A stretch of 64,000 nucleotides of DNA from Spartobacteria bacterium (GTDB taxonomy: Bacteria > Verrucomicrobiota > Kiritimatiellia > RZYC01). A model generated the notes under the pieces. It had not been told where the DNA came from, made no database searches, and saw nothing but the letters and a program-made list of their open reading frames with translations. Shown here piece after piece: positions 15,607 to 63,228 of this stretch. The position numbers were made by a program, and so were the translations under genes. The first letter of the stretch is position 1. Every line of letters starts with the position of its first letter. The stretch lies in assembly GCA_009929845.1 (NCBI GenBank), contig RZZM01000001.1, positions 14,166-78,165 of the forward strand. The letters are read 5' to 3'.

Positions 15607-15619
15607 CGTGTGAGGCCAT

Positions 15620-21589: not shown

Positions 21590-21633
21590 TGGGTATAATA
21601 CGTAGACAACAAGGTATAGCAGGAGTTTAGCAT

Positions 21634-24413: not shown

Positions 24414-24546
24414 GCATCTTTTCATGTTTGGTATTAACAGAATTAGTCAACTCGATTACTTGTAATCATTTAGAACATAGATTACAATTCATACATATTT
24501 TTTTAATGTTGTTGGTTAGTAAAGCAGAACGAGGTCAACAGGGTAT

Positions 24547-25344: not shown

Positions 25345-25375
25345 TCAACGGGCTACAAGGAGAAAAGCCGCGCAT

Positions 25376-25744: not shown

Positions 25745-25776
25745 CGCATACTTTTCGAACAAAGGACATGGTTGCA

Positions 25777-27709: not shown

Positions 27710-27727
27710 CGACAACGGAATAGCATT

Positions 27728-29695: not shown

Positions 29696-29709
29696 GCGGA
29701 GCCGCGGGT

Positions 29710-47700: not shown

Positions 47701-50226
47701 CATGTGCTGATGTATTGGATCCCCGGTGACGCGGAGCCGAATCTCGCCAAGATATCCACCATCATCCACGGCAACCAGGCCGTTCAGCCGGGCAGTACGA
47801 TTCAGGCCCTGATCAACAACGGTGAGGGCGGGGGATACGGACGTCCTCTGGGTTCCCACGGGCTCTTCCAGGCACCCTTGAACCTACATGTCACGCCCAC
47901 CCTGGCCATGGCCATGGAATGGGCCAAAACCGACCCGGCCAATACCAACGACTGGCGCAAGACCAAATACGCCTCCGGCCCGCTCTTCAACGACTGGATC
48001 GCGGAACTGTATGCCACCAACCTGGTCTACCTGTTCGCCTCCACCTTCTCTGATCATATGATGCCGTATTTCACCGAGGCGTATAACAATGATAACATTG
48101 CGCTTGCCGAGCAGGTCCTGCATGAAATCTACGGATTCACCCCGGACTCGAATACCGTGTTCTGGACGCCCGAGCGCGTGCTCGATTCCGATACCTTCGG
48201 CAAAATTCTCAGCGCCGGCTACCGGCACACCTGTGTCGACCAGTTAACCCATATCTGGAACTGGTTCGGACGTGACGAAGCGCTGGGAACGCCCGGATAC
48301 CGTATCAATCAAATGGAAGACGTCGATTGTTTCGTTATCAATAATGGTCCCAGTGCCGTGATGTTTGAGAATTACGATGAAGGCCTGCCGATTGACCTGC
48401 GCAATCTGCTCATACGCAAGGGCCTCGAAGACACCACCAAAGACCAGTTGGTGAACCTCTTTATGCCCTGGGAGGACTACGCGGATACCGACAATGCGAA
48501 TGCCTACGATGTCAACCTGCGATGGATCGCCAATCACCCGTGGATTCAACCCGTCGGATTGGAAGAAATAGCCTCCGACCGTTCATTTGGCGGACATACC
48601 TGGTGGAGCGTCGAGCGCGGTTCTTCGCTTGCGCTTTCCAAGCAAAGTCATGTCTGGCTTAATCATGCCAGCGATGATGACTTCGATAACTGGTATCTTG
48701 GCGGTACCCTCCATGAGGGCCTCCAGGATAAATATTTTGACATCCGCCCCGGCGTGGCCATGACCAACAAGTACGGCATGCTGTACACCCCGGGCGTCGT
48801 CGCAGATGCATGGGACACGGTCGATGGACTTTCTGACCCCGACATCTCCGCGCTGGCGCGCGCCGCCCTGCACGCCTCCACCTTCGAGACCGCTTTCCAT
48901 AATGAAGATGAAAACGACCTTTCCCGCTGGTCAACCGGCGATTTCATCCATCCGGTCAGCAACTATTCTTCGTTGGCCACTTTCTCGAAGATTGCCCAGT
49001 CCCAGTCCCGCTTTGCCGCGGTCTATGACCGGGTCGACCAGTGGGCCGCCTCGGCGGCCTCGGTGACCACGCCACAGACCCAGGCCCTTGATGTGGACCT
49101 CGACGGCGAGCAGGAATATGTGATGTACAATGACCGTCTGTTTGTTCTGATCGAGCGGATCGGCGGGCGTGTGATCGGGGTCTGGGTCCGCGACATCCTC
49201 AACGCCGGGGTCTACCAGGCCGCCGGCAACCTGGTCAGTTACGCAGGCAGCGAGGACGAAACCGAAAACTACTATAATGCCGACACCAATGGCGTGGTCG
49301 GCGCCTACCGGACCTCCCTGCTCAAGGACTGGTGGGCGGACACCGCCGACTATATCAACGATATCTATACCGCTTCCCCGGTGGCCGGAGGGTGGCAGAT
49401 GACCTCATCGAACGGATGCATCCAGAAGACCCTCACCCTGGCGGAAAAGTCCTGGGAGATGGAAGTGGACTACGTTTTGTCCGGTGCGTTGGCGGGAACC
49501 ACGCTTTACATACGCAACGGGTTCTCCCCGCATCTCTATGATTTGCTGGTGGCCGGGCAGGGGACCCTGGGCGATCTGCAGGATGCCTCCGGCGTCCTTA
49601 CCCTGGAAAACACCAATTACAATACTACCGTGCTGACTACCATTGGCTATGCGGACGGCACGCACGCTGCAGGCTATGTTTCCACGGCTATCGATCAGCC
49701 GTCCTCCGGCGCCCAATTCCATACCATGAACATGCGCAACCAGGCGCAGACCCACCAGGTCGAGCTTTCCGGGTCCGCCAGCTTCTCCTTCTCGCTCGGG
49801 TTCCGCGCCCTGCCGTCCGACTGGAACCAGGACGGCATGCCCAACGACTGGGCGGACGAGTACGGACTGGGGACAAACGTCCAGGGCGGCGCCTCCCAGG
49901 ACGCTGATGGTGATGGCGTCATCAACAAGGATGAATATGTCGCCGGCACCAATCCGAATCAGGATACCGACTACCTTTATGTCTCCCAGACCGCCCCCAC
50001 CGGAACCGGCATCCGGGTACAGTTCCCGACCAAGGCCGGTCGCGACTACCGCATCTGGTACATGAATTCGTCCCTGCAAACGCCCAACTGGAGCAACGCC
50101 ACCCCGACGCTCATCAGCGGCACCGGCAGCACCTACGAATGGATCGACGACGGTTCCAATACCGACCCCAACCCCGCGGACACCACCAACCGCTTCTACA
50201 AAATCCAGGTCCAGTTGCCCCAATAA
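41779..50226 (+). CDS. Giant secreted multidomain glycoside hydrolase (2815 aa): GH13 alpha-amylase-family domain, beta-sandwich region, thrombospondin-type-3/EF-hand-like Ca-binding repeats, GH57-like domain, dockerin-like module and a C-terminal beta domain
   Basis: GH13 regions are GLRLDAVKHV (region II) and YAKSHDD (region IV). The Ca-binding repeats are DTDGDGLPDALE, DSDYDGLPDGVED, DSDGDGLSDGYGEDGD and DTDGDGLPDGWE. GH57-like motifs are IIHGNQAVQP, LNLHVTPTLAMAMEW and VFWTPERVL. A signal peptide probably begins at GTG 41824 (VKAKLRLWCMCLLIGGVVASVPASA). Confidence 0.85.
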   Translation: MCIDILSGKEKKGLNVKAKLRLWCMCLLIGGVVASVPASAEVILQVFNNTWAEITEKIPEYVEVGYTALWLPPPQKAGSIWSVGYDLFDPFDLGGIDQNGSVKTRYGTEAELKNLMATAHRFGLRVYFDNIMNHRGYHIPGYDANTPLDVYPGMLPEDFHLQVTPEGFYRAWPDTVNWGSTWEVQNYWLSGLIDISHEEPNANFGQNAGDTHPRIKFLRHPNNPEFYAYLPDDTYVGFNSPQITTNTLATNSWYYEEDVGAYLNRSVRWLVNETKCDGLRLDAVKHVPGYFFGEQWAGDKDSSDAGYCGQAQVEFNLSRGFNDWDNHRDTVFDTELDFGRNDLMIFGEHMGEPPPYSDFWAAGMRLLDARTHSTLNERLGNPWSNLNGLDSADYIDGVQMGQQLGIYYAKSHDDGIANHEELHYAINLTRAGLPDIYTDGNRQAETLGESGGAFPRHANTCYLGQWGDSRIPNLVYMHNQFARSWQYPRLSDDDVVAYDRIDKRENSGMSDADACVMCFMLNDNYADGAYREVSTAFPEGAYLWQYATGGGNFYTQVDGGKIKVIIPSGGYFLFSWRSPEESTLWSYGGGNPLTIYENGEECGWMGYWRYDGPDGDPNFNPYASGVTTNYGYKWWVPLVTSRTNLRFATRVDGSAYHVMFKLDGGMDLNGDAHAPSGDMRDHPPGNEGSYDVFLGYEDADFVKRIGPEKFADSDTSSNTIGSAGSGSYEMTIGSDGVNVNHGNGANDYDNTQGASFVYHDPTASTDFGESQFWPPPSNAANQDLWIQVKVGQAGDINRVYLYYSIDGETWPEGAGGEAVGNNTYVTEMYWTTNWVDGSDTNDWWKCSIPGGFPADTVFRYKIGACREQGYAGAPWYCPFPNSEYDIAMKTRMMGLWEIDDLNVDTNVYYQHNDWGNVITGLVDGFHVIRSRAFLQRETQAPIYNTFTQPFYLDAETVQGELIYPAENDTLYNNEYGCVLRTDWTCKKVYFHIEDNDPSNDDAATGRTLGNGTNAAGAWAWAEASENIPALNIDSVYPKEWRFNYSNIPSNGAAVLYIKMAELSSSTNYLDTAEDGHFGEIVRNLNASGPGYRMFMAWPQNNGDTVGEGYDMKVHFSWNLWEGFDETTVKNRFLITIDGETQGRDNYSLSWGGAGDYHELAYSLPDLYDGSPENVHEIVVTHTNAAGNGVTLNAAREVLAYPSSTGPTIQITDPPEYDSDGARYRIILPDLASPTPTDRMYQVSVQTDTTVKDVWIDFTNSSTGYITPVSATNYLMSNAVTVVNGTNLVLGTNFNSVLSAGNRILIASNEVTVATILNDTNLLLRFNWDQASGTNVAAYRIGGNPTVEGSAYIWKFWWTNMTKGSYTFVASATTNTDTYNVHAAATRNATVIFREIVNASTNDLDDDDDGLFDADETTSVDLPSSNPESWTNGVVHQWYSFGKTDPLMPDTDGDGLPDALELGFRYASSSTDTNTDTNGDGYPNFIIDLDPPIYNTVPDNSDMPGFNLNASRTSKLMGSTTDPNNPDSDYDGLPDGVEDANRNGWVDGDHDALPVGYEPWDGWDYPRGVWSASWTETSPNLADSDGDGLSDGYGEDGDLNGAIAGDINSNRVYDPGEQWTETDPLNPDTDGDGLPDGWEVTYSLSPWDDGVIGHTNMYDGSLITTNTHGPDGNPDGDYIVDGTVTNPYTNIREYENGTNPRYFDPLEPPPEGSIVIGPGPSLGELTGLGTQYTEFTDWTADDVLALDEYEGAGKNSEGGDIYRKWDEWDSSRDLVAFYARDGGSDVNEFYFRVDLHDLKAHAEEGNVDFYVVIDTGNPSVGEMALPDEVDCTTSMRWEAVVAVYDSGNGAVYVDTDREHNTTASYQNLYDYGVVRRDMSDPMGFIEAYFNSSLDAVEFSIRRSGLTDSTSGAGWNGLNPGDLNYQVYSVADGTCNTCGEEGGAGGGDIGGRPDIRDAIYNDYIAEDFWNAQAGLPHVLMYWIPGDAEPNLAKISTIIHGNQAVQPGSTIQALINNGEGGGYGRPLGSHGLFQAPLNLHVTPTLAMAMEWAKTDPANTNDWRKTKYASGPLFNDWIAELYATNLVYLFASTFSDHMMPYFTEAYNNDNIALAEQVLHEIYGFTPDSNTVFWTPERVLDSDTFGKILSAGYRHTCVDQLTHIWNWFGRDEALGTPGYRINQMEDVDCFVINNGPSAVMFENYDEGLPIDLRNLLIRKGLEDTTKDQLVNLFMPWEDYADTDNANAYDVNLRWIANHPWIQPVGLEEIASDRSFGGHTWWSVERGSSLALSKQSHVWLNHASDDDFDNWYLGGTLHEGLQDKYFDIRPGVAMTNKYGMLYTPGVVADAWDTVDGLSDPDISALARAALHASTFETAFHNEDENDLSRWSTGDFIHPVSNYSSLATFSKIAQSQSRFAAVYDRVDQWAASAASVTTPQTQALDVDLDGEQEYVMYNDRLFVLIERIGGRVIGVWVRDILNAGVYQAAGNLVSYAGSEDETENYYNADTNGVVGAYRTSLLKDWWADTADYINDIYTASPVAGGWQMTSSNGCIQKTLTLAEKSWEMEVDYVLSGALAGTTLYIRNGFSPHLYDLLVAGQGTLGDLQDASGVLTLENTNYNTTVLTTIGYADGTHAAGYVSTAIDQPSSGAQFHTMNMRNQAQTHQVELSGSASFSFSLGFRALPSDWNQDGMPNDWADEYGLGTNVQGGASQDADGDGVINKDEYVAGTNPNQDTDYLYVSQTAPTGTGIRVQFPTKAGRDYRIWYMNSSLQTPNWSNATPTLISGTGSTYEWIDDGSNTDPNPADTTNRFYKIQVQLPQ

Positions 50227-50285: not shown

Positions 50286-50632
50286 GTCGCTGCTTGTCCC
50301 GCCGTAATATATGAAGGCGGGTCCCCAGCGACCGGGATAATCCAGCCAGCTTACGGGTTTATCCGAAAGCAACCTGGTCTCCCCGGTCATTGAGGACAAT
50401 GACCCTCCCGTGAGAGAAGGGCGTGCGTATGGCAGCATTCAAAAAACAACAAAACTAAATAAGTAATAAAAAATAAGTATTGACGATGTGTAAGAATTAT
50501 GGTTTCTACTCCCTTCAATGACAAATGGAGGGTGCCGATGGTGGCATCTCCATGTGGTGGTCAGGATAAACAGGCGGGATGGAGATTGATCGTTGGATCG
50601 ATGGCGGGTCCCGTAAACGAAAGGGAGAAGTG

Positions 50633-51289
50633 ATGAGAAACATAGTGTTGGGTTTGGTGAGTGTGGTGGTATGTGCGGCATGCGCGGCGCAAGGGGCGCT
50701 GATTTTTGAGGATAACTATGACAGCGAAGATACCGGGAGTGGCGTCGGGTATCCGGATGGATACAGCTTTTTTGGCACGGGCATTGATGACCGAGGCGTG
50801 ACCGCGCTGGAGTCTGTGTCCCCTGATAATTCAGGGTACCTTGCCCTGGACAACGGTGTAACGGCCTGGGGCGCCGGATGCTGGAAAGCGGCGGCCGGCG
50901 GGGCTGTTGATCTTACCGAAGGGTCGCTTTCGATCTACATGAAGCGCACCGCCGGGACAGCGGGCGGTGTGGCGTTCAAGGTATGGGACGGCGATGGCAA
51001 TGAGTATCGTACAGCGGACGAAGACCTCTTTTCCATCAGTACCGACTGGACGGAGTTCAGTCAGCCGCTTTCAGCGCTGACCCACCAGGATGCCGGCAGC
51101 GGCGCGCTGGATGCCGCTAACATTACGCAGTATGGACTGATTTTCTACAAGGCGGGCAGCGGAACAGACGCCATTACCTATTACTTTGACGATTACACCG
51201 GCAGTACCATCCCTGAGCCGGGCGTCGCTATGCTGTTGATCGGCGGGATAGGGACCTGCCTGTTCCTGCGCCGTCGGAAACGCGCCTAA
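50633..51289 (+). CDS. PEP-CTERM-anchored putative carbohydrate-binding (CBM-like beta-sandwich) protein
   Basis: It has a signal peptide (MRNIVLGLVSVVVCAACAAQG) and a Gly/Asp-rich beta domain. It ends with a canonical PEP-CTERM sorting signal: IPEPGVAMLLIGGIGTCLFLRRRKRA. Confidence 0.75.
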   Translation: MRNIVLGLVSVVVCAACAAQGALIFEDNYDSEDTGSGVGYPDGYSFFGTGIDDRGVTALESVSPDNSGYLALDNGVTAWGAGCWKAAAGGAVDLTEGSLSIYMKRTAGTAGGVAFKVWDGDGNEYRTADEDLFSISTDWTEFSQPLSALTHQDAGSGALDAANITQYGLIFYKAGSGTDAITYYFDDYTGSTIPEPGVAMLLIGGIGTCLFLRRRKRA

Positions 51290-52212
51290 AAGCTGTGTGT
51301 TTTTGTGAATTCGAGCACATCGGCAAGCTTGGCTTCGGCCATGGAAATGCAGGTGTCGGCGCAACCGTAATAGACCCGCAGGACGGTATTGTTTTCTTCC
51401 ATGGTCAGGGCGCTGGGAAAGACCACGTTGGGGACATCACCGACGCGTTCATAGGGCGCAGTGGGGTAGAGCAGATAGTCTTTCGTGCGGTGGATCACCT
51501 TCCAGGGCTCATCGAGATCGAGCAGCGCGGCGCCCATGGAATACAGGAAGCCGTTGCAGCTCATCCATACCCCGTGGTACAGGAGCAGCCAGCCCTCGGG
51601 GGTTTCGATGGGGTGGGGGCCGGGCCCGGTCTTCACCGACTGCCAGCCGGGTTTCGGGCCCAGCACAAAGCGATGCGTGCCCCAGTGCACAAGATCGGGG
51701 CTGGTGGCATAAAAGATATCCCCGAAGGAGGTGTGACCGCGGTCGCTGGGCCGATGCAGGATGGCGAACTTGCCATTGATCTTGCGGGGGAAGATTACGC
51801 AGTTACGGTTGGCGGGGGGCAATGGATTTTCCCATTGTTTATAGGTGTTGAAATCTTTGGTTGTGGCCAGGCCGATGCAGGGGCCCTGTCCGTCTGAATT
51901 GCACCAGGTGATGTAGTAGGTGTCGTCCATCCTGGTGATCCGCGGGTCATAACTGTAATGGGTCATGAAAATATCGGGATCGTCGCTTTGCATCCGGATG
52001 CGCTCGGGCTCAATCGTCCAGTGGATACCGTCCGGGCTTTCACCGTAGTGCAGTGTGTATTCCATGCTGATTTCATCGATGCGAAAAATGCCCCGGTAGC
52101 CGTTGGCTTCTTTCACAATGGCGCTGTTGTGAATGCTGTTGGCGCGGGGGACGGCGCTTGGGGTGACAATGGGATTGCCTTCGTAGCGTTTAAATACGGT
52201 TTCATTGGCCAT
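51286..52212 (-). CDS. Glycoside hydrolase family 130 (beta-mannoside phosphorylase-like)
   Basis: A 308-aa protein with the GH130 pattern (NPIV, HYSYDPRI, ILHRPSD, GWLLLYHGV). Confidence 0.78.
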   Translation of the reverse strand: MANETVFKRYEGNPIVTPSAVPRANSIHNSAIVKEANGYRGIFRIDEISMEYTLHYGESPDGIHWTIEPERIRMQSDDPDIFMTHYSYDPRITRMDDTYYITWCNSDGQGPCIGLATTKDFNTYKQWENPLPPANRNCVIFPRKINGKFAILHRPSDRGHTSFGDIFYATSPDLVHWGTHRFVLGPKPGWQSVKTGPGPHPIETPEGWLLLYHGVWMSCNGFLYSMGAALLDLDEPWKVIHRTKDYLLYPTAPYERVGDVPNVVFPSALTMEENNTVLRVYYGCADTCISMAEAKLADVLEFTKTHSF

Positions 52213-55204
52213 GGTCGGTTCCTTTCATGTGATGCTGTGGACTAATAAGGGTTGCCTCGCCCCATTGGCGGGCGTCATATTCTTCGGTGCCCAGCCAGAG
52301 CAGGTGCTGCCACTGGTTCCCTTCACGCTCCGGGTCCGCATCGCAATTCGATACGTTCAATCCGATGACGTGCGGGTTTTCAACGGGGGCGCTTCCTCGC
52401 AGGAAATCAAGCGGAATCGCCGCCTCAATGTAATACCCTTCGGGGGTGATCGAGGAGGCGGCCGTTATATTGGTCAGGCTCTTGTTGTTGTAGAGGGGGT
52501 GCCGGTAGACGACGTTATCGACGCGGCCGGGGGTGTCGATGGATGGCGCCAGGTTGATCTGCCAGCATCCGGGATTGTGCGGCATATTGTTGAAAAAGTC
52601 GGCGTCGTGGCGCGCGTCAATCCACAGCTCTATACAATCGTCTTTCCAAAGGTCCGGGCCGGCCTTGTGTCGGCGCGCCACCTGATTGTCGTTGACGGCG
52701 GCGGCAATGTAGAGGGTGTCCGCATTGTAGTGCGCCAACCAAAACGTCATACCGTTGTCATTCCCTTTTTCTTTGCCGCTGAGGGTGTAGGACGGGATGT
52801 CCTCCCATGACTTGGGTTGGCCGTCCGGTTTGAAGGGCGCCGTAAGGGCCGGAATCGCCATGCTCTTTTTCGCTTCAATCCGCTGTGTGGGATCCCAGGC
52901 GGACAGGATGATTTCCGGCGTGCCCTCCGGTGGGGTGCTCGCTGTGTCGTCGCGGATAAGCCGGATGGCCGTATCCGGTCCGGCGGACGCATAGGGCAGC
53001 ACGGCTTGCCGATTGGAAACAGTGACGGTCTCTTTGGAGAATACCGTTCCTTCATAGGTATTCCATTGTTCATAGACCCATGCGCCGTCGCTGATATTGG
53101 TAATCGTAAGCGCTCCCTTGAATGCCTGTGGCGCCAGGGGCGGATGGCCGGACCACGGAAGGCGGGATGGATCGTACAGCCAGAGGTTCACACGGTCCGT
53201 TCCGCACAGGCCCATGACATGCAATTCGACGCCCGTTTCACAGACGGTTTTGCCGGTCTTCAGTTCCCAGGCGCCGTCGCGGCGGTCCAGGCCTTCCCCA
53301 AAGCGGCTCAGGGCGGCATAGTGATAGTACAGTTGATTCGGGTCGATGAGGTCATACCACCACCAGCTCATCGCGTTGCCGCCTTCCGGCAGCATGAAAG
53401 CGGCCCAGATCGTCGCATGGATAAACTGCCCGGTGAGGTCTTCGCCATCGACCCCGTCGTCGGTGTTGCGTCCGAATTCGGCCACAAAATGGGGTTTGTT
53501 TAGTTCCTTGTAGGGCGGGTACATCGAGGCCAGGTACGAGATGATGTCTTCGGTGTAGACATGGGATTGTGTGTAGTCGATTTCAGGGAGTGAGAACACT
53601 TCGACATTGGGTGTGGTGATGTAGCTGGTGGTGACCATATGGCCGTGCGGGTCCGTCTGTTTGATGTATTGCGCCATCTCCCGGTGCCAGGCGGTATCGT
53701 GGACCATGTTGAAATTGTCCGACAAGTCGACCTCGTTGAACAGCTCCCATGCCATCAGGTTGGGGGAATGGCCGTACCTGGCGATAATGTAGCGGATACG
53801 ATGGCGGGTAAGGCGTTTGGCCTCTTCATTATAGAAGAACGATTCAGGGGTTTCGCAGGGCCCGCCATTCGCGCTGTTGAGGGGATTGTTTTGCCACTCC
53901 GGGTTGGTGTTTGCGCTCACGCGGCAGTGTTCGTGAAGGACCAGTTGCAGGTAGAGGTCGTTTTCCTCCGCGCAGGCCATGATCTGGTCAAGTTTCTCCG
54001 CATGGCGCAGGTTGTAAAGGCCAAGGCCCTCGTAATCGCGAATGCCCTCCATCCACTCCAGTTCACAATTCCAGGGGGCGATCCATATCCGTGACCAGTT
54101 TTCGCCGTGCGCGTGCATGGCGGCAAATTGCTCGCGATATTCGGCAAGGCTGTTCCAGCAGACGTTGTGACCCAGCGCATAGTAGAAGCGCTCGTCCGCC
54201 AATTCGAAATAGGCCGGGTGGGCCGTGCAGACGCGCGGAAAGCCGCGCGGTTCGGCGGGGGCGACCACCAACGGGGTAACCTCGGTTTCGATGGTTTTCC
54301 CAGGGGTACGGGCGAAGAGTTTCCACTGCCACTCGCCAGCCTCTTTCGGGGTAAAACGGATCCGCCACTGGTCATAGGGATGCGATTCCGTGGCCCAGGC
54401 ATAAAGAAAGCCGGGACAGGTTACCTGGCGTCCGGAGGGGGCAAGCAGAACAACTTCCACGGATAGTTCATCCGGGTCAAACGGGTTCGTTGCCACGATC
54501 GCCAGGTCGGCCGAGATTTCGAGCATCCGGTAGCAGGCGGGCTGTTCGGTAAGCAATTCAACGTGCTGGAACGAGAGGGGGGCCACAATACGCGACGCCC
54601 GCTTTTCTTGCGCGATAGTGTCGGTGAGTGTCATGTCTATGATGTCCATTTGATACGATGCTCCTGACTCGGGGTAGAGGACCAGTTCCAGTGAAGTAAC
54701 GGGGGCTTCCATGCGCACAGCGTCTTCGTGCCGCCAGGAGGAGGTGGCGCTTTTATACTGTGGTTCCGAAAGCGCAAAGACGTGCGAGGTGATCGTATGC
54801 GCGGGGAGGGTTATGCGCGGTCCCTCATAAAATTGATCGGTGCGTAGGGCGGGGGCGAGCGTCACAGGCTGTTCGAAGGTTTCGACTGTCAGCGTGAGCG
54901 TCGATGACGGGGACAGGTGACGACCGGAAACGGCGGTCCCGATGATCGTGCCCTTTTGCGCCTCGCCTTCGGGGCCCTCAATATCAATGTTAAGGCGTTC
55001 CGGTTCGACGGGGGTGAGGACCGGGGTCGCGGAATCACCCTGCCAGACCAGCGACCAGGCGGCGGCCGGGGGAGAAAAACTCGATAACGTCGTCATCCCA
55101 TCGGCCTGTTCCACGATTTCCACGGCGGCCGCAGCAAGACAATACGCAAAAAAACAGAGCATCAATTGCGCAAATAAACGGACCGGAAGCCAGTATACCT
55201 TCAT
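52202..55204 (-). CDS. Secreted GH5-family (clan GH-A TIM-barrel) glycoside hydrolase with a C-terminal CBM9-like sugar-binding domain
   Basis: It has a signal peptide (MKVYWLPVRLFAQLMLCFFAYCLAAAAV) and the acid/base motif AWELFNEV. The C-terminal TFWLAHYNADTLYIAAAVND...DDCIELWIDARHD resembles family-9 CBM. Confidence 0.65.
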   Translation of the reverse strand: MKVYWLPVRLFAQLMLCFFAYCLAAAAVEIVEQADGMTTLSSFSPPAAAWSLVWQGDSATPVLTPVEPERLNIDIEGPEGEAQKGTIIGTAVSGRHLSPSSTLTLTVETFEQPVTLAPALRTDQFYEGPRITLPAHTITSHVFALSEPQYKSATSSWRHEDAVRMEAPVTSLELVLYPESGASYQMDIIDMTLTDTIAQEKRASRIVAPLSFQHVELLTEQPACYRMLEISADLAIVATNPFDPDELSVEVVLLAPSGRQVTCPGFLYAWATESHPYDQWRIRFTPKEAGEWQWKLFARTPGKTIETEVTPLVVAPAEPRGFPRVCTAHPAYFELADERFYYALGHNVCWNSLAEYREQFAAMHAHGENWSRIWIAPWNCELEWMEGIRDYEGLGLYNLRHAEKLDQIMACAEENDLYLQLVLHEHCRVSANTNPEWQNNPLNSANGGPCETPESFFYNEEAKRLTRHRIRYIIARYGHSPNLMAWELFNEVDLSDNFNMVHDTAWHREMAQYIKQTDPHGHMVTTSYITTPNVEVFSLPEIDYTQSHVYTEDIISYLASMYPPYKELNKPHFVAEFGRNTDDGVDGEDLTGQFIHATIWAAFMLPEGGNAMSWWWYDLIDPNQLYYHYAALSRFGEGLDRRDGAWELKTGKTVCETGVELHVMGLCGTDRVNLWLYDPSRLPWSGHPPLAPQAFKGALTITNISDGAWVYEQWNTYEGTVFSKETVTVSNRQAVLPYASAGPDTAIRLIRDDTASTPPEGTPEIILSAWDPTQRIEAKKSMAIPALTAPFKPDGQPKSWEDIPSYTLSGKEKGNDNGMTFWLAHYNADTLYIAAAVNDNQVARRHKAGPDLWKDDCIELWIDARHDADFFNNMPHNPGCWQINLAPSIDTPGRVDNVVYRHPLYNNKSLTNITAASSITPEGYYIEAAIPLDFLRGSAPVENPHVIGLNVSNCDADPEREGNQWQHLLWLGTEEYDARQWGEATLISPQHHMKGTDHGQ

Positions 55205-55508
55205 GATTTTCGCTTGTTTAGTGGTCATTGCATTCATATACATCTTGCCGTATATCCCTTTGAAATTGCCATAATATATTTTTTTCATGTGCACCGCTAG
55301 CCGCTTATCACACAACGCAAACGTTTGCATTTATCTGAAAATACGGCGTGGGGTGGATTTTGTAAAGAGGTTTTTCCGCATTATTTGCGGATAATTCAGG
55401 CCTGTTTTATGATTGATGGCACCTTTTTGCTGTGGTAACCTTTTCCCGAGGTTTCGGAACAAGCGTAACCTGCTGTTGTCGGCGGGATAGAACGAACGGA
55501 GCGATGCG

Positions 55509-58500
55509 ATGATTGAGCTAAAAGACGGTTTTCGGCGGTTTCGTGGATTGATTCTGTTTTTCTTGACGGGAGGACTCCTGCTTGCATCGGCTTTCCTGTA
55601 CGCCCTGCAGGCCGCCCCGGTGCCCGATGCGCCCGCTCCGGTTTTCCTTGATATCCCCACCAACGATGTGCAGTACGGCTTTGAGCCCGACCGGCAGGGT
55701 TGGCGCAATGTCGCATACACCGACCCCGGTGATTATCACAATTCCCTCACGGGTATCGTGAACGCTACCCGGTCTTCGCTCTATGCGGCCGAAGGAAGTA
55801 ATTCACTGGAACTGGATGTGCGGATTATCAATGAAACAACAAACCGCCAAAAGGGCGCGGTGGCTGTCGATATGACCTGGTATCCGCCGCCTTCGCTCCG
55901 TGCCCCGTTCAACCTGGACGGCACAAACATCCATGCCTACCTGTACTGTCCCGTCGGCAGCGCCGCCACCAACCCGCTCTCGCCCAACCTGGCCCAGATA
56001 TATGTCAAGAGCCGCCAGGATGAATTTACCTGGCCGGCCCAGTACGGCGCGGCGGCAACAATGGTCGAGGATAGCTGGGTCGAACTGCAATTGACCCCCT
56101 CGACCAATACGCCCCCCGGCGGGTACACGCAACCGGGCTTCGACCCGCGGGCCATCCTCGAAATGGGCATATCCATTGAGATGTCGGGCATCTATACGGG
56201 CGCGCTTTTCCTGGACGGAATCCGGTTTGACGTGGGGCCGGACCCGCGCCTGACCAATTCGCAGCATATTTACTCTTTCGACACCGCCGACCAACAGGCC
56301 TGGTGGCGCTGGGGCGTTAACGCGGAGGGGCATCACGCCAAGGCCTGGACCCATGTGTACTATGCGACCAACGACCTCACCGAGGGCCGTCCGGCTTTGG
56401 CGGCCCAGGCGTCCTTCCGTACAAACGACAGCGCCGAAGTGGTCACCAACCAGTCCGGACAGGTCATAACCAATGAATACGTGTTTCAAAAGGGCAATTT
56501 CGAAATTGCCTACGAACCGTCCCTGAACCTGAGCACCAAGGACAACCGGATGTGCCAGGCGCGCCTGCGGTTCGATCCGCCGGTCGAGGGGCTCCTTTCG
56601 TTCGAGGCGTCCCTGCAACTGTATGACAAGATCACGGACCAGTGGTACTACCAGGTTTATCCCGTCGGTGGCAGCGGCTGGAATATCCTGAACTGGAACC
56701 TGGATGATCCGGACGACTATGCCACCAACCGGGTAACCAATCCGTCTCCCCCCGGACCGATGGACGCCTCCGCGATCGGCTTTGCCGCTATCCAGTTGTT
56801 TGCCAATGTGTCATGGACCGGCACCGTTTACCTGGAGGAGGTCGTGCTGGGCGGCGTCGAGACCGGCACGAATTACCAGCGTATAACCAGCGGCTTCGTG
56901 CACCCCGCCGGGCATAAATATGTCCTGGACGGTTCCAACTTTTATCACTGCGGCGCGAATATTGAGTATCTTCAGACCGTGCCGGACGCCGTGGTTGAGG
57001 AGTGCCTTGACTGGTGTACCAACATGGGCATCGACGTGGTCCGCACCTGGGCCATGCAGGAGGGACAGCCGTACAGCTTCCAGCCGGAGCGCGGGGTCTG
57101 GAATGAATTGATGTTTGAACATTTGGACCGCATCGTGGCCATGGCCGGCGACCGCGGAATCCGCCTGATGCTGGATGTGCTGGATAACTGGGCGCATAAT
57201 GGCGGGGTCTTCCAGTATGTGCATTGGGTCACCCGGGAGCATCCGGAAACAGTGAACACCAATCTCGACCCGGAAGGGGTCGCCTATCATGACCAGTTCT
57301 GGACCAATACCTATTGCCAGCAGTGGTACAAGGATTATGTGGAGCGCCTGCTGCGGCGCACCAACACCATCACCGGCGTGCAGTATAAGGATGACCCGAC
57401 CATCTTCACGTGGGAAATAGTCAATGAGCCGCGCTGTGAATCCGATTTTGACGGCAGCACGATTCATGATTGGCTCCATGAAATGAGTGACTGGATTCGG
57501 ACCATCGATACCAATCACATGCTCGGGCCCGGCGAGGAGGGCGGGTATGTACGCACCTATGCCGACGCCGACAAGGTCGGCTGGGAGGTCTATCCGGCCA
57601 ATTATTATCACTATGGGGTCTATGGCACCGGCAGCGCGACCTGCGATGTGTACGGGTGCGGCCGGGGGCATGGCGTGGACTTTATCAGCGATATGAGCAG
57701 CGTTTCCAATTATGTCATGTGGCAGGATGGCGGTTGGTCCAATACGGACTATCATCCGCCGGAAGGGGAATGGCGCAGTGGAAATTCCAATATCCATTTC
57801 TGCACAATTCGACTTTATATCGACCAGAAGGAATACAATCTCTGGCGCACCAATTTCAATGACGCCGATCAGCGCCTTGAATGGATCAATGACCACTGGT
57901 ATGAGTCGCACCGCGTCATCGGCAAACCCATGTTGCTCGAAGAGTTCGGCATCCACGCGGTCGGCTGGGTGTTCAACGGGTCCTACGGGCAGGTGCAACT
58001 GGTGCCGTCACCCAAGTATGATATCCAGGACCGTGTCGACTTGTATGATAAGTACTACTGGCACATTGAAAATTGCGGTATCCCCGGTTCCTATTTCTGG
58101 AACTTCGGATACGAGGGCATGTGGAACGATCCGTTCCACCGCTGCGAAGAGCTCGCGCCGTGGTACGCCTACACAGCCCAGTGGTCGGCGGTCTCCGTGG
58201 CCCTCGATACCAACTATGCGATGCAGGGCGCCAATTGCCTGCAACTGAATTTTGACGTGCAGGACCCCGGGGAAAACCGGGCGGTCTTCATCTGTCCCAC
58301 CAATGAGATGTGGGTGCTGCGCGTGGACCCGGATTCCACCAACGATCCCCCCACCCGCGGGGTCAACCGGGTCAAGTTTTTCTGGAATGTGCTGAGTCCC
58401 ACCCAGGAGGTGTATGTCGCTATCGGCCTGCGAGGCACGGCCAGCAATTACCTGGCCGAGTCCGTGGCACAGCGCGTGCCCGCCGGGGCCTGGACAAACC

Positions 58501-59474
58501 TGATGTTTGACCTCAGCGCGGGGACCTGGGCCTGGGAGGGCAACGGATGGAGCCATACCGACTATCTCATTCACATCACCAACAGCGCCACGGGCACAAA
58601 CATCCTGGCGGATGTCAGGGAGGTGAATGTGGTGGTCTATGACCTGGCCATGGGCGCCGGCGCGGTCTACCTGGATGATATCCAGATCAAGCGCGATGAC
58701 GGGTTTGTCGTGTACCGGGACGACCCCGTTTGCGCGGTCATCCAGGCCCACGCGGAACGTATGGCGGATTGGAACATGCCCACCAACCGCCCCAATATCT
58801 CTCCCGTCGCGCCTTCACTCCTGGTGGATGTGCGCGCCTTTACGGCCACAAATATCAACCTGACGGCCACGGATGCGGACGGCGACAGACTCAGTTATCG
58901 CTTCATGTCCATGCCCACCAACGGCTGGGTGTTCGGCTCCCCGCCCTCCAATGTCCTGTACAAAACCTTTCCGGGCACACCGGCCTTACAGGATGAATTC
59001 ACCTATGTGGCCTATGACGGGTTGGCCGACAGCCTGACAGCCACCGTACGCCTCGTGGTAACCGATGGCGATGTGGACGCGGACGCGCTCCCGGATAGCT
59101 GGGAATATGATTTCTTCCCCAAACGTGTGCAGTGGTGGCCGGACTGCGACCAGGACATGCTCACCAACATGTATACCGCCTGGGACTGGGACCGGGACGG
59201 ATGCACGGACTGGGACGAGTACCGGGCCGGGACGGACCCCACCAATGCATCGTCGCTGTTTACGATTCTGCAGCAAGTGCAAACACAGGCGGCATACGCT
59301 GTATACTGGTCGAGTGTGGACGGCAAAGCATACGTGGTGGAACGTGCAACCAACCTTGTTGAGGGCTTTGTTTCCCTGGTGACCAATGTGGCAGTCCCTC
59401 CGATGAACAGCTACACGGATGAAACCGGCGCGGCGTCAAGCGCCTGTTTTTACCGCATTCGCCTGGGTGACTAA
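55509..59474 (+). CDS. Giant secreted GH5 beta-mannanase-like protein (1321 aa) with a C-terminal dockerin-like module and terminal beta domain
   Basis: It has a signal/TM (LILFFLTGGLLLASAFLYALQA). The GH5 mannanase-type acid/base motif is FTWEIVNEPRCE, with the nucleophile region MLLEEFG. The C-terminus matches that of the 2815-aa protein. Confidence 0.72.
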   Translation: MIELKDGFRRFRGLILFFLTGGLLLASAFLYALQAAPVPDAPAPVFLDIPTNDVQYGFEPDRQGWRNVAYTDPGDYHNSLTGIVNATRSSLYAAEGSNSLELDVRIINETTNRQKGAVAVDMTWYPPPSLRAPFNLDGTNIHAYLYCPVGSAATNPLSPNLAQIYVKSRQDEFTWPAQYGAAATMVEDSWVELQLTPSTNTPPGGYTQPGFDPRAILEMGISIEMSGIYTGALFLDGIRFDVGPDPRLTNSQHIYSFDTADQQAWWRWGVNAEGHHAKAWTHVYYATNDLTEGRPALAAQASFRTNDSAEVVTNQSGQVITNEYVFQKGNFEIAYEPSLNLSTKDNRMCQARLRFDPPVEGLLSFEASLQLYDKITDQWYYQVYPVGGSGWNILNWNLDDPDDYATNRVTNPSPPGPMDASAIGFAAIQLFANVSWTGTVYLEEVVLGGVETGTNYQRITSGFVHPAGHKYVLDGSNFYHCGANIEYLQTVPDAVVEECLDWCTNMGIDVVRTWAMQEGQPYSFQPERGVWNELMFEHLDRIVAMAGDRGIRLMLDVLDNWAHNGGVFQYVHWVTREHPETVNTNLDPEGVAYHDQFWTNTYCQQWYKDYVERLLRRTNTITGVQYKDDPTIFTWEIVNEPRCESDFDGSTIHDWLHEMSDWIRTIDTNHMLGPGEEGGYVRTYADADKVGWEVYPANYYHYGVYGTGSATCDVYGCGRGHGVDFISDMSSVSNYVMWQDGGWSNTDYHPPEGEWRSGNSNIHFCTIRLYIDQKEYNLWRTNFNDADQRLEWINDHWYESHRVIGKPMLLEEFGIHAVGWVFNGSYGQVQLVPSPKYDIQDRVDLYDKYYWHIENCGIPGSYFWNFGYEGMWNDPFHRCEELAPWYAYTAQWSAVSVALDTNYAMQGANCLQLNFDVQDPGENRAVFICPTNEMWVLRVDPDSTNDPPTRGVNRVKFFWNVLSPTQEVYVAIGLRGTASNYLAESVAQRVPAGAWTNLMFDLSAGTWAWEGNGWSHTDYLIHITNSATGTNILADVREVNVVVYDLAMGAGAVYLDDIQIKRDDGFVVYRDDPVCAVIQAHAERMADWNMPTNRPNISPVAPSLLVDVRAFTATNINLTATDADGDRLSYRFMSMPTNGWVFGSPPSNVLYKTFPGTPALQDEFTYVAYDGLADSLTATVRLVVTDGDVDADALPDSWEYDFFPKRVQWWPDCDQDMLTNMYTAWDWDRDGCTDWDEYRAGTDPTNASSLFTILQQVQTQAAYAVYWSSVDGKAYVVERATNLVEGFVSLVTNVAVPPMNSYTDETGAASSACFYRIRLGD

Positions 59475-59647
59475 AATCAGAACTCCTTTGGAAACATAGA
59501 CTGATACCCAAGCGGGAGGTCGCTGTCCGTAACGACTGGATTATCCAACCATTTTTCAGATTCAACAGAACGCTTCCTGATTCACCAGGTATTGAGGACC
59601 ATGTCCCTCCATCCACAATCCCTGCGGAGCAGCCTCTGGCACGATCG

Positions 59648-61498
59648 GTGAGTGAAAAAGTGTATGGTTTTCTTCGTCGATCCGGGTACTATGCCACTAT
59701 GAAGTATTTTGTATTTCTAATGCTGGCTGTTGTGTTTATGTGCCCGGCGCAAGTCATCGGCGACATGTCCGGGGCGCGTGTTGTGCTGCGTCCGTGGACA
59801 TTCCTCCGGGGCGATGATGTCGACTGGGCGAAACCGGATGCCGATGAATCTGCCGGGACAGCACAAACAGTGCCCGAATTATTCGATGCCACCGGGGATT
59901 CACCGATGGCCTGGTACCGGGTGCGGTTCGACCTGCCCCGGGAGAGGCCCGCCGGCGGATGGGGCGTACGCACGGGGCGTATCCTCACCTCCGACGAAGT
60001 GTATTTAAACGGCGGGCTGATCGGCGGCGAAGGGCGCATCGGCGCGGATTTTGTTGATGCGCCGCAAAAGGAACGTGTCTACCGCCTGCCCGGTCATCTC
60101 TTGCAACCGGAAGATAATGTGTTGGCGGTGCGCGTGCAGTCCAGCCAGGCGCGGGGCGGACTCGCCGGCGCGGTGGTTGTCGATGCCTGGGAGGAGATAT
60201 CACGCATTGCGCAGCGGCAGATGGCGCGCCAAAAAGCGAGTGAAGCGTTTGTGCTCGGGTTGCTGGGCATGACACTGGTGTTCTGGGCCATGCTGTATGT
60301 GCGGGGTGTTCCTCACCGCGGGTATCTCTGGATCGGCATGCTCATCGTCCTCTTTACCCTGGTCTTTGGCCTGGAAAGTTTGCTCTTCTACGAAGCCAAA
60401 TGGCTCACACCACGGCTCCAGCGCATCGCCGTCGCGGCCCTGGCCGCCCTCCCGGCGCCGTTTTTCATGCTCAGCCTGCCTGTTTTTGACAGCCGGTGGC
60501 CGACACTCGTGTTGAAAGGCCTGGCGGGACTTTGCGCCGCGCTGGCCTGTTTCATCGCCATCGCCGGGAATCTTCAATGGTGCCACCGTATCGAGCCGCT
60601 ATGGATGGGCCTTGTGCTTGCGGGAACGGCCATCATCGTGCCGGGCTTCCTTCGAAAAGGGTGGGGGGCCTTACCCGCATCCGATCTCTGCGTGTTCGCC
60701 GGGTTCCTGTGGCTGGTGGCATTCAGTCTGGTGGAATACCTCGTCTGCCAGTGGAATCCGCTCCTGCCGCCTTTCAGCCTGGCGCTTCACATCGGTTTCG
60801 CGGGACTGGCCGCCTCCCTGGCCGTTGCGCTGTCTATACAATACCGCGCGACCTACCGGCAACTGCGCCATCTCTCGCGCCAGCTTGTCGGGACTGAAGA
60901 ACAGGAGCGGAAACGCCTGGCCGCCACGCTGCACAACGAGATCGCGCCCACCCTCTCCGCGGTCAAACTAGATATTCAACTTTTGCTGCGCCGGTGTCCC
61001 CGGGAGGAAGATGACGACGGCAAGCGAATCGTTGCGCAGCTATCCGATTCCATCAATGCGCTGCGCGATTTTTCCCACGTCCTGCGCCCCGCCGAAATTG
61101 ACCAGCTTGGACTGACTGTCGCGTTGCGCGCCCTGGCCGAACGGACAGCCGACCAGCATGGGTTCTCGCTGGAACTCGACCTGCCAGAGGGGGAGGCCCC
61201 ATTCGCGGGCATTTCGCCGGACATGTCGGTCACCATCTACAGGGCCGCCCAGGAAGCCTTCAACAACATCGTCCGCCACGCCTCCGCCGATAGCGTCCGG
61301 CTGACCCTGGAACGAAAAAGCAGCGGATTGCGCCTGCGTATATCGGACAACGGCCGGGGCGGCGCCCCGTTGCAGGCGAATACCGGAATCGGCCTGCTGA
61401 CCCTGCGTGAACATGTGGACGCCCTGGCCGGCACATGCCGCGTCACAACCGCCACAGGAAAAGGAATGGATATAGAACTATGGCTCCCCATCAACTGA
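59648..61498 (+). CDS. 7TMR-DISM-type sensor histidine kinase (periplasmic sensing domain, 7 TM, HisKA_3, HATPase)
   Basis: It has an extracellular beta-rich domain (YRVRFDLP...EVYLNGGLIG...AVRV), seven hydrophobic helices, a HisKA_3 H-box ERKRLAATLHNEIAPTL and an ATPase region (GIGLLTLRE). The start may be at MKYFVF (59699). Confidence 0.75.
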   Translation: MSEKVYGFLRRSGYYATMKYFVFLMLAVVFMCPAQVIGDMSGARVVLRPWTFLRGDDVDWAKPDADESAGTAQTVPELFDATGDSPMAWYRVRFDLPRERPAGGWGVRTGRILTSDEVYLNGGLIGGEGRIGADFVDAPQKERVYRLPGHLLQPEDNVLAVRVQSSQARGGLAGAVVVDAWEEISRIAQRQMARQKASEAFVLGLLGMTLVFWAMLYVRGVPHRGYLWIGMLIVLFTLVFGLESLLFYEAKWLTPRLQRIAVAALAALPAPFFMLSLPVFDSRWPTLVLKGLAGLCAALACFIAIAGNLQWCHRIEPLWMGLVLAGTAIIVPGFLRKGWGALPASDLCVFAGFLWLVAFSLVEYLVCQWNPLLPPFSLALHIGFAGLAASLAVALSIQYRATYRQLRHLSRQLVGTEEQERKRLAATLHNEIAPTLSAVKLDIQLLLRRCPREEDDDGKRIVAQLSDSINALRDFSHVLRPAEIDQLGLTVALRALAERTADQHGFSLELDLPEGEAPFAGISPDMSVTIYRAAQEAFNNIVRHASADSVRLTLERKSSGLRLRISDNGRGGAPLQANTGIGLLTLREHVDALAGTCRVTTATGKGMDIELWLPIN

Positions 61499-62091
61499 TT
61501 CGAATCATCCTCGCCGACGACCACCAGCTTTTTCTCGAAGGCCTCCAGCGGTTATTCAGCGATCAACCGGATATACAGCTTGAAGGCTTCGCCCGCACCG
61601 GACGGGAAGCGCTGGCGCTCATCGAAGCGCGAAAACCGGACATCGTCGTGCTCGACATCGACATGCCCGACATGGACGCCTTCACCATCGCCAACCGGCT
61701 GGCCGGCGCCGGCGATCCTCCGCGTATCATCCTGCTCAGCATGCACAACGAGACCGCCTACCTGTTAGCGGCTTCACGCCCCGACATACAGGGCTATGTC
61801 CTCAAAGATGCCGCCTTCGACGACCTCATACATGCCGTGCACGAGGTCCATGCCGGAAGACGTTACATGAGCGCAGGCATCGCCGACGATGCCGTCGGCA
61901 GCCGTTCTCCGTTGACACCGCGCGAACAGGAGGTGCTCCGCTACGCGGCCGCCGGTCTGACCACCCGCCAGACCGCCGATCAACTCGGTCTGAGTGCCAA
62001 AACCATCGAAACCCACCGCACCAACATTATACGAAAACTGGATGTCGCCAACATCACGGAGGCCGTCCACATCACGATGCGTTTGCGATAA
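61480..62091 (+). CDS. NarL/FixJ-family response regulator (REC + LuxR-type HTH)
   Basis: IRIILADDHQLF, an acidic pocket VVLDIDMPD and a LuxR HTH (LTPREQEVLRYAAAGLTTRQTADQLGLSAKTIETHR). Confidence 0.85.
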   Translation: MAPHQLIRIILADDHQLFLEGLQRLFSDQPDIQLEGFARTGREALALIEARKPDIVVLDIDMPDMDAFTIANRLAGAGDPPRIILLSMHNETAYLLAASRPDIQGYVLKDAAFDDLIHAVHEVHAGRRYMSAGIADDAVGSRSPLTPREQEVLRYAAAGLTTRQTADQLGLSAKTIETHRTNIIRKLDVANITEAVHITMRLR

Positions 62092-62173: not shown

Positions 62174-62962
62174 ATGAGCACACAAACAGGACCAATCGAT
62201 ACGCTTGCTGCCCCAGGGCAAAAAGCGCTTTCTTATCAGGTGTTTTACGGGTTTATCCCGTGGATTATATTCTGGATTTTTTCAGGGGCTGGGCTATGGC
62301 CTGTTGCCATTCTGGGCGGCTTGACGTGCGCTGCCGTGGTTGTCGTGTGGCGATGGCTTGCGTGCGGCAACACGAAAACACTTGAGCTGGTGGCGTTGGG
62401 GTATTTCGCGCTGCATGCGTGCCTCACCCTGCTTATCGGCTGGCCATTTCTGAAAACCTATGGAATGGTTGTTAACGGAGTCGTACTCGCCGGCATGGCC
62501 TTCGGAACGTTGGCGGCGAAAAATCCATTCACGTATCAGTATGCCAAAGAGGAGTGGGACGAAATCTACTGGGATGACCCCGAATTCTATGCCATCAACG
62601 CCATCATTACGGCTGTGTGGGGCGGAATATTCTCTCTTAATGCACTCATGGGCGTCCTGGCCGTCCTGCGCCCCGACATGAGAACATGGTTCTCCATTGT
62701 TTTCCCGACCGTCAGCATGGCTGGAGGCATCATTTTTTCGTATCAATTCCCGCTCTTTGCCGTCCGGAGAGGGCTGCAGCAACGGCTTGACCAGTGGGAG
62801 CCGTACAAATGGCCTCCCCCCTGCTTTGACGCGCGCCCCACGGCGGAACGCGAGCACGATGTGGTCGTGGTGGGTTCCGGTATCGGCGGGCTTTCCGCTG
62901 CCGCCTTGCTGGCCAGGCGCCGGATTATGCGGAAAAGAAGCGCCGGGTCGGCGACGCGATGA
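62174..62962 (+). CDS. Hypothetical membrane protein whose 3' end runs into a truncated FAD-oxidoreductase N-terminus
   Basis: It has about 6 TM helices over 210 aa, then EREHDVVVVGSGIGGLSAAALLARR (a Rossmann GxGxxG) and an early stop. Confidence 0.4.
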   Translation: MSTQTGPIDTLAAPGQKALSYQVFYGFIPWIIFWIFSGAGLWPVAILGGLTCAAVVVVWRWLACGNTKTLELVALGYFALHACLTLLIGWPFLKTYGMVVNGVVLAGMAFGTLAAKNPFTYQYAKEEWDEIYWDDPEFYAINAIITAVWGGIFSLNALMGVLAVLRPDMRTWFSIVFPTVSMAGGIIFSYQFPLFAVRRGLQQRLDQWEPYKWPPPCFDARPTAEREHDVVVVGSGIGGLSAAALLARRRIMRKRSAGSATR

Positions 62963-63228
62963 TCGACGCCGCTCAAAAAATAATCCCCGGCCTGCGCTCG
63001 CGCATCACCTATCGACAAGAGGCGTCCCCTGCCACATTGGCGCGTTACGCATGGAGTACGCACGGGTGCATTTATGGCCCCGCGCCCGGGCAGGCGGGGC
63101 TCACCACCCAAACGCCCCTCAAGCATTTATACCTCGCCGGCTCCGCAGTCGTTGGCAGTGGCGTCGAGGCGGCGGCCATTGCCGGCATGCACGCCGCACA
63201 CGCCATCAGGCCCGAGCCGCACCGGTAA
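62857..63228 (+). pseudogene. Remnant of a phytoene-desaturase-family (CrtI-like) FAD-dependent oxidoreductase with an internal deletion of about 350 codons
   Basis: The N-terminal dinucleotide-binding motif (HDVVVVGSGIGGLSAAALLA) lies at 62857-62962. A frame change follows. A C-terminal family segment (IYGPAPGQAGL...LYLAGSAVVGSGVEAAAIAGMHAAHAI) lies at 62959-63228. The central roughly 350 aa of a normal ~500-aa enzyme are absent. Confidence 0.5.

Follow-up and report, generated by a model that had tools for sequence, protein, structure and literature searches.

A conserved gene trio for predicted beta-mannan depolymerisation in a Kiritimatiellia genome, next to a two-component pair that is probably not dedicated to mannan

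We analysed a 64,000-nucleotide (64-kb) stretch of DNA from a Spartobacteria bacterium, placed by GTDB in the Kiritimatiellia (assembly GCA_009929845.1, contig RZZM01000001.1, positions 14,166 to 78,165), which we refer to as the window, and in particular five genes toward its 3' end. Three of these encode putative mannan-degrading enzymes. They are a 308-amino acid (aa) glycoside hydrolase family 130 (GH130) protein (51286-52212, minus strand; open reading frame (ORF) and Pfam), an enzyme that combines a DUF5060 domain, a GH5 domain and a family 9 carbohydrate-binding module (CBM9) (1042-aa ORF at 52202-55330, minus strand), and a 1321-aa GH5 protein (55509-59474, plus strand; ORF and PDB phmmer search). 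They are followed on the plus strand by the genes for a histidine kinase (ORF 59648-61498) and a response regulator (ORF 61435-62091). An earlier, first-pass annotation had listed all five ORFs, which we found at the same positions, and had read them as a mannan-targeted cluster with a dedicated sensor. Our analysis indicates that the three enzyme genes probably represent a conserved module for beta-mannan depolymerisation, and that the kinase/regulator pair that adjoins them is probably not dedicated to mannan.

The GH130 and GH5-CBM9 genes overlap by 11 nt and therefore form one operon, which runs divergently from the gene for the 1321-aa protein. The GH5-CBM9 gene likely starts at 55204 (Met43, MKVYW...), so that the gene occupies 52202-55204 and its product is ~1000 aa in length. 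This is because relatives align with the protein only from residue 47 of the query started at 55204 (residue ~89 of the ORF), and because the closest relative has 990 aa. The divergent intergenic region that results, 55205-55508, is presumed to be a shared control region for the GH5-CBM9/GH130 operon and the mannanase gene. A consensus promoter scan of this region gave no signal above chance, and promoter and terminator scans from 50 to 62.5 kb returned counts at chance level that are uninformative on co-transcription of the kinase and mannanase genes.

The 1321-aa protein is most like a secreted, multi-modular GH5_7-like endo-beta-1,4-mannanase, a subfamily assignment made by similarity to solved structures. 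A local Pfam scan of the protein detected Big_9 alone, with GH5 undetected even at E<=10; its precomputed annotation is PF26410 (GH5_mannosidase). Searched against the PDB with phmmer, it matched 16 GH5 mannanase or mannosidase chains (E 2.9e-46 to 8e-5), and all annotated matches under E 1e-4 were mannanases or mannosidases, with solved GH5 mannanases spanning E 2.9e-46 to 1e-13. The best were 9m20 (2.9e-46), 8gf3 (BlMan5_7; 6e-44) and 1rh9, the tomato enzyme LeMAN4a (1.7e-41). The GH5_7 link comes from the title of the 8gf3 entry, BlMan5_7, and we take the remaining top matches to belong to CAZy GH5_7 as well. The catalytic Glu pair of clan GH-A is present: the acid/base E640 (codon 57426-57428) lies in WEIVNEPRC (residues 634-642), the motif that the first-pass annotation had recognised as mannanase-type, and the nucleophile E812 (codon 57942-57944) lies within LLEEFG. 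Both motifs align with those of 9m20 and 8gf3.

The GH5 barrel (residues ~456-880) is only one part of this protein. It is preceded by an N-terminal hydrophobic signal or anchor helix and two ~200-aa modules without a family match, and is followed by a further module without a family match (881-1070), Big_9 (1098-1182), and a TSP3-like region with a C-terminal beta-rich module (1196-1321). Several of the non-catalytic modules are beta-sandwich-like; PDB sequence searches with residues 40-460 and 880-1321 gave no meaningful matches, and self-comparison of the protein revealed no internal repeats. The barrel shares the NEP acid/base and EFG nucleophile motifs with GH5_7 mannanases such as 1RH9, 8GF3 and Thermotoga petrophila 3PZ9 (E 1e-35 to 1e-46), but differs from them in that it sits inside a 1321-aa protein with three ~200-aa modules, Big_9, TSP3 and the C-terminal module, and in having ~70 extra residues inserted between the strands that carry the acid/base and the nucleophile. 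Full-length relatives (44-73% identity) occur in many metagenome-assembled genomes (MAGs) of Verrucomicrobiota/Kiritimatiellae. The TSP3 repeats and C-terminal module probably keep the enzyme at the cell surface.

In the 1042-aa protein, Pfam detected both the GH5 (Cellulase, 4.6e-6) and the CBM9 domain (CBM9_1, 4e-13; residues 846-1029, 50.1 bits against a gathering cut-off of 23.4) expected from the first-pass annotation, and in addition DUF5060 (1.8e-9). A phmmer search of the PDB returned 9gmj and 9gpc at 3.5e-71, labelled "DUF5060 domain-containing protein", with the NEVD and EFG motifs aligned. An AlphaFold (AF2) model of residues 245-735 had a predicted local distance difference test (pLDDT) score of 90.1, and a Foldseek search with it gave entries for ManDH5 as the top matches (E 8.5e-48, TMq 0.89). 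The identification of 9GMJ as ManDH5 was made solely through the entry titles from this fold search, which describe "a beta-D-mannanase of GH5 family from Dictyoglomus", complexes with mannobiose and mannotetraose, and an E303Q mutant. The acid/base E533 in WELFNEVD aligns with ManDH5 E303 (Q in 9gpc), and the nucleophile E618 in VAEFG (AEFG) aligns with the GEFG of ManDH5, both residues being numbered on the 1042-aa ORF. The protein is thus a homologue of ManDH5 and probably a second secreted beta-mannanase of the cluster. With the Dictyoglomus thermophilum enzyme (9GMJ, 9GPA, 9GPC-G) it shares the DUF5060 Ig-like domain and GH5 barrel at 29% identity, but it has ~200 extra N-terminal residues without a family match and the C-terminal CBM9. 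A reading of 9GMJ as a beta-1,2-mannan enzyme, which stemmed from its PDB code adjoining those of the GH130 entries of PMC12814180, was dropped as the entry titles name the ManDH5 beta-D-mannanase.

The 308-aa protein matched Pfam GH130 at 2e-65 (221 bits), and is closest to cytoplasmic, GH130_2-like beta-1,4-mannoside phosphorylases, which agrees with the first-pass annotation. Its full-length matches in the PDB were UhgbMP (3e-106), RaMP2 (5ayd; 2e-103) and TM1225 (5.5e-103), whereas beta-1,2-mannoside enzymes matched at 1e-35 to 1e-48 and GH130 hydrolases at 1e-10 to 1e-12. D89 aligns with the catalytic Asp104 of UhgbMP, and D89, R136/N137, R154, H160 and H213 are all identical to the aligned UhgbMP residues; R136, R154 and H213 presumably correspond to the positions of the phosphate-binding basic residues. 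No N-terminal hydrophobic segment or signal peptide was found in the protein. An invariant catalytic Asp, basic phosphate-binding residues that are absent in hydrolases, and the lack of a signal peptide separate cytoplasmic GH130 phosphorylases from secreted hydrolases (PMC4599007), and on these features the 308-aa protein groups with the cytoplasmic phosphorylases. In all of these respects it resembles the GH130_2 phosphorylases UhgbMP (4UDG), RaMP2 (5AYD) and TM1225 (1VKD), with full-length E-values of ~1e-103 or better. Unlike UhgbMP, it has an N-terminus ~15 residues shorter, and a Phe (NGFLYS) in place of the +1 subsite Tyr (NGYVYS).

Based on these homologies, two secreted retaining GH5 enzymes, one a GH5_7-like endo-mannanase and the other ManDH5-like, would attack beta-1,4-mannan outside the cell. 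The manno-oligosaccharides would then be imported, with no transporter being encoded in the cluster, and the conserved residues and absence of a signal peptide suggest that GH130_2-type phosphorolysis in the cytoplasm would yield alpha-mannose-1-phosphate and a shorter oligosaccharide. The mannan loci of Ruminococcus albus, Bacteroides fragilis and Roseburia intestinalis combine an extracellular mannanase with intracellular GH130 phosphorolysis. The window cluster is similar to these in that it would pair a secreted endo-mannanase and oligosaccharide uptake with energy-saving GH130 phosphorolysis, but it is without a transporter, epimerase, GH130_1, phosphomannomutase or isomerase, its enzymes are of a giant surface type, and its conserved unit does not include a regulator.

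A mannan-targeted cluster, as the first-pass annotation had proposed, is thus supported by both GH5 domains, which match mannanase-type relatives, and by the GH130 protein, which matches beta-1,4-mannoside phosphorylases. The assignment of the GH5 domains to non-mannanase types, which that annotation had named as the outcome that would count against it, did not occur in comparisons with solved relatives. We also considered whether the module is directed not at plant-type beta-1,4-mannan but at other beta-mannosides, for example the N-glycan core of eukaryotes (Man-beta-1,4-GlcNAc) or the beta-mannans of fungi or algae. The best GH130 match, UhgbMP, is a Man-beta-1,4-GlcNAc/N-glycan phosphorylase, and no specificity could be assigned to the mannanase's non-catalytic modules. 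However, the scores of RaMP2 and TM1225, which carry the name of beta-1,4-manno-oligosaccharide phosphorylases or are grouped with them, are nearly as good, the matches of both GH5 enzymes are to endo-beta-1,4-mannanases, ManDH5 was crystallised with beta-manno-oligosaccharides, and no N-glycan enzymes of GH18, GH85, GH20 or GH2 are encoded nearby. We consider these other substrates highly unlikely as the target of the module.

Comparison with related loci revealed that the three enzyme genes recur together. The mannanase and trio comparison covered loci designated L019-L026, which represent seven distinct loci as L024 and L025 share one arrangement; a metagenome scan with the GH5-CBM9 protein had returned four loci. 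The mannanase, GH5-CBM9 and GH130 genes were found in the same order and orientation as in the window on three other contigs (L020, L021 and L023), and the GH5-CBM9/GH130 pair alone was found in L019. In L020 and L021 the mannanase homologue (52-55% identity) is the N-terminal third of giants of 3073-3189 aa, and diverges from a GH5-CBM9 homologue (48-51%) that is followed by GH130 (75-76%). GH130 orthologues with 75-76% identity occupy the equivalent position throughout L019-L021; in L023, where the closest mannanase relative (P0064, 73% identity) is found in the trio arrangement, that position is occupied by a 308-aa GH130 identified by Pfam. This shared arrangement indicates that the trio is a conserved functional unit. 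In L021, L024 and L026, moreover, a single polypeptide of >3000 aa combines a DUF5060-GH5 module with a mannanase-type part, a fusion which suggests that the two types of GH5 act together.

Several of these loci had additional features. L024 (1-24338), L025 and L026 (1-14902) encode two or three tandem paralogous giant mannanases of 1445-3287 aa, some of them fused to DUF5060-GH5, and L024 and L025 encode a small Mann_GBD_bact protein together with a LacI-family regulator. In L020 the trio is followed by a protein with a type VI secretion system (T6SS) Tle1-like phospholipase domain and by a second, divergent GH130 with 37% identity to that of the window (14543-15766, 17472-18446).

The kinase gene likely starts at 59699, giving a protein of 599 aa in agreement with the NCBI record, and the regulator gene at 61480, giving a protein of 203 aa and a 19-nt overlap with the kinase gene that is equal in relatives. 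Pfam detected HisKA_3 and HATPase_c in the kinase, and Response_reg (REC, 2e-21) and GerE (2e-20) in the regulator, which is of the NarL/FixJ type as the first-pass annotation had it; the two genes in one operon have the composition of a NarL/FixJ-type pair. NCBIfam models likewise labelled the kinase UhpB/NarX-like and the regulator UhpA/NarL-like, with all scores under the equivalog cut-offs. The kinase begins with a signal or transmembrane (TM) helix and a ~150-aa extracytoplasmic sensor (~22-172), followed by seven hydrophobic segments (183-380), HisKA_3 with H412, and HATPase_c.

The first-pass annotation had classed this protein as a 7TMR-DISM kinase with a carbohydrate-sensing periplasmic domain, and both descriptions stand in part. 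The seven segments and overall layout fit a 7TMR-DISM-like architecture, but neither PF07695 nor PF07696 matched the window kinase even at E<=10, and neither extracellular domain, PF07696 (7TMR-DISMED2) nor PF07697 (DISMED1), was recognised in it. Among twelve full-length members of the kinase family, seven weakly matched PF07695 (best 3.8e-4), five matched a beta-galactosidase jelly-roll family and none matched PF07696. In an hhalign comparison with the PF07695-carrying relative P0025, the sensor, TM and kinase regions all aligned (E 5e-24, a score dominated by the kinase part). The label is thus based on the layout and on weak evidence at the level of the family. The sensor domain has a GH2-N-like jelly-roll fold of a carbohydrate-binding type, but the ligand cannot be read from this fold, since the DISMED2 sensor LadS of Pseudomonas aeruginosa binds calcium and the ligand of RetS is unknown (PMC7695008).

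As regards a dedicated mannan sensor, searches with tblastn found no match to the kinase, the regulator or two proteins encoded upstream of the trio (a 236-aa PEP-CTERM protein and a 2815-aa giant, both described below) in L019-L026, and no kinase is encoded in the 681 bp 3' of the closest mannanase orthologue. In L024/L025 a LacI regulator stands in place of the pair. We also compared ten other contexts of orthologous kinase/regulator pairs (41-56% identity). RHS/YD-shell giants lie beside the pair in six of the ten (L002/L013, L003/L004, L005/L006/L016, L007, L008 and L014), and are mutually orthologous from residue 1 at 39-66% identity. The neighbour is a 2681-aa ricin-lectin giant in L010 and a 1010-aa fibre-like protein in L015, whereas L012, the closest genome relative, has beta-helix proteins and a "small" RHS-associated protein; the contig of L009 begins at the kinase, and its downstream proteins of 557 and 676 aa are without a Pfam match. 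No identifiable glycoside hydrolase was encoded next to the kinase relatives in any of the ten contexts, several neighbours being without a Pfam match. The RHS cassettes (L002:3001-12378, L003:4135-12393, L005:3-8251, L007:35-9097, L008:3-10687, L014:2-9240) consist of giants of 1675-1994 aa and a "small" protein of 216-289 aa, occur in MAGs of Opitutia, Victivallales and Verrucomicrobiota, and often have Y1 transposase genes nearby.

The absence of the pair from the trio loci, together with the presence of its kin beside RHS giants, means that a dedicated mannan sensor is not supported. The kinase and regulator belong to a family of the Planctomycetes-Verrucomicrobia-Chlamydiae (PVC) superphylum that is partnered elsewhere by a conserved, orthologous RHS/YD-repeat giant, and the pair most likely came to adjoin the trio through genome arrangement, or was at most recruited in this lineage. 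The alternative is a dedicated regulon, in which the jelly-roll of the kinase would bind mannan or manno-oligosaccharides and the NarL-type regulator would turn on the GH5 and GH130 genes, and perhaps the 2815-aa giant. The pair lies immediately 3' of the mannanase gene and shares its strand, and the sensor fold is of a carbohydrate-binding type, both of which are in keeping with such a regulon; adjacent-gene control is plausible as the kinase family always adjoins genes for giant secreted proteins. We nevertheless regard it as unlikely, given that none of the seven distinct trio or mannanase loci encodes the pair and given the RHS cassettes beside its relatives. The core motifs of the sensor are, moreover, invariant between RHS-linked members and the window kinase, which argues for one common signal, hhalign found no similarity between the sensor profile and the modules of either GH5 enzyme, and the ligands of characterised DISMED2 sensors are calcium or unknown.

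Alternatively, the pair could be left over from an RHS cassette or have been displaced from one, with its true target an RHS-type gene further along the 80-kb contig, beyond the end of the window. In relatives, orthologous RHS giants are conserved beside the pair, to either side, and the broken oxidoreductase gene just downstream of the regulator and the Y1 transposases near several relatives suggest a region prone to rearrangement. However, tblastn found no RHS genes in the 64-kb window, including the 1.9 kb 3' of the regulator, save a weak 65-aa motif at 681-872 and 2024-2212, and L012 is also without an RHS giant within reach, so that we consider this explanation doubtful. A distinctly more speculative proposal, to which we give little weight, is that the sensor family is an undescribed PVC controller of adjacent giant exoprotein genes, mostly an RHS/YD giant and a small protein with TSP3 and the C-terminal module, which was re-wired here onto the giant mannanase.

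Several points weigh against our preferred interpretation of a conserved beta-mannan module beside a pair that is probably not dedicated to it. All enzyme activities of the cluster are inferred from homology. The pathway is incomplete, with no transporter, mannose-phosphate enzyme, epimerase, alpha-galactosidase or esterase found in the cluster, and GH130_2 enzymes act also on Man-beta-1,4-GlcNAc from N-glycans. The kinase gene starts 224 bp after the stop codon of the mannanase gene on the same strand, and by this physical adjacency the pair could regulate the mannan genes locally in this genome. The closest kinase relative (P0002, 55% identity) is on a 2.6-kb contig on which its neighbours are not visible, and the sequence 3' of the mannanase homologue is not visible in L020/L021. 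The survey comprised about ten kinase contexts and seven mannanase contexts.

Upstream of the trio lie genes for a UPRTase (40913-41545, minus strand; ORF and Pfam annotation), a GH13/GH57 giant of 2815 aa (41779-50226, plus strand; ORF and Pfam/NCBIfam) and a 236-aa secreted PEP-CTERM protein (50579-51289, plus strand; ORF and TIGR02595). The giant has an N-terminal GH13 alpha-amylase domain (6e-24 to PDB alpha-amylases), long stretches of TSP3 repeats and a weak GH57-like region at ~2074-2163, around IIHGNQ; the pairing of GH13 and GH57-like domains in one protein of this length represents an unusual double alpha-glucan enzyme architecture. The first-pass annotation had joined this giant to the mannan genes in an 18-kb glycan island. 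As both the giant and the PEP-CTERM protein are absent from L019-L026, the island is not supported, and the two are non-conserved neighbours of the trio.

The same annotation had assigned PEP-CTERM and dockerin-like modules to the island. A PEP-CTERM signal is indeed present, with a PEP motif, TM helix and basic tail (TIPEPGVAMLLIGG...RRRKRA, with TIPEPGV), and scored 19 bits with TIGR02595 (cut-off 16) and 17.3 bits with Pfam, under the cut-off of 20.7. It occurs only on the 236-aa non-catalytic protein, however, and no PEP-CTERM was found on the three mannan enzymes or the giant. There was no Dockerin_1 match in the 1321-aa protein (E<=10) or the giant (E<=0.01), only TSP3_bac and Amuc_1099-like repeats. 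What the mannanase (59094-59471) and the giant (49849-50223) have in common are acidic, TSP3-like repeats together with a beta-rich domain of ~90 aa that ends in FY(R/K)I(R/Q)(V/L). This C-terminal module is also found on L021 (261-560), L024 and L026 giants and on small proteins beside RHS genes (L005:5024-5674), and weakly matches the Amuc_1099 family. It may serve PVC bacteria as a signal for export or for retention at the surface.

No SusC or SusD was found among the genes from 40.9 to 64 kb, as had been claimed, and their absence is expected in Verrucomicrobiota. The cluster resembles the polysaccharide utilisation loci of Bacteroidetes, with their SusC/SusD and hybrid two-component system (HTCS) or extracytoplasmic function (ECF)-sigma regulators, in the co-location of glycan-degrading enzymes, but differs from them in having no SusC/SusD and in that its regulator is not conserved with the enzymes.

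Directly 3' of the regulator is a broken FAD-oxidoreductase gene (62174-63228, plus strand). The membrane domain and GxGxxG start of the FAD oxidoreductase (62174-62962) end early, and the C-terminal end is in another frame (62959-63228), a pattern suggestive of a frameshift or an internal deletion. Elsewhere in the window are genes for envelope-polysaccharide biosynthesis and tryptophan synthesis, for further sensors and for one GH10. The latter, a 663-aa protein of the xylanase family (11922-13913, minus strand), is about 40 kb upstream of the trio and adjoins genes for a PAS histidine kinase (14119-15606) and a hybrid kinase (16090-18111). The envelope-polysaccharide biosynthesis and export cluster (19671-31128, plus strand) includes a family 4 glycosyltransferase (GT4), a WbqC-like protein, a PIG-L deacetylase, a DegT aminotransferase, a GT family 4 phosphotransferase, Poly_export, a chain-length ATPase and a Wzy-like ligase, and GDP-mannose dehydratase-type genes are found at 5680-7673. 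Two ORFs at 477-1490 and 1856-2404, neither with a Pfam match, fall within a stretch of low GC content (0.47, compared with ~0.57 elsewhere). They have in common a ~65-aa motif, which also matches residues 1639-1706 of the L014 RHS giant.

The mechanism suggested for the trio, secreted GH5 mannanases combined with a cytoplasmic GH130, is already known in kind and leaves the current understanding unchanged. The trio is, though, a clean conserved example of how beta-mannan would be broken down in Verrucomicrobiota/Kiritimatiellae, with two GH5 types at the surface, a cytoplasmic GH130 and no SusC/SusD. The structure of ManDH5 gives a probable substrate for the widespread DUF5060-GH5-CBM9 family, which aids the annotation of PVC metagenomes. 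The sensor/regulator family associated with RHS giants provides a minor new lead on the regulation of RHS genes in PVC bacteria, and if it were a controller re-wired onto the mannanase, sensing of glycans at the surface or in the environment would be linked to the deployment of toxins or of glycan-degrading enzymes.

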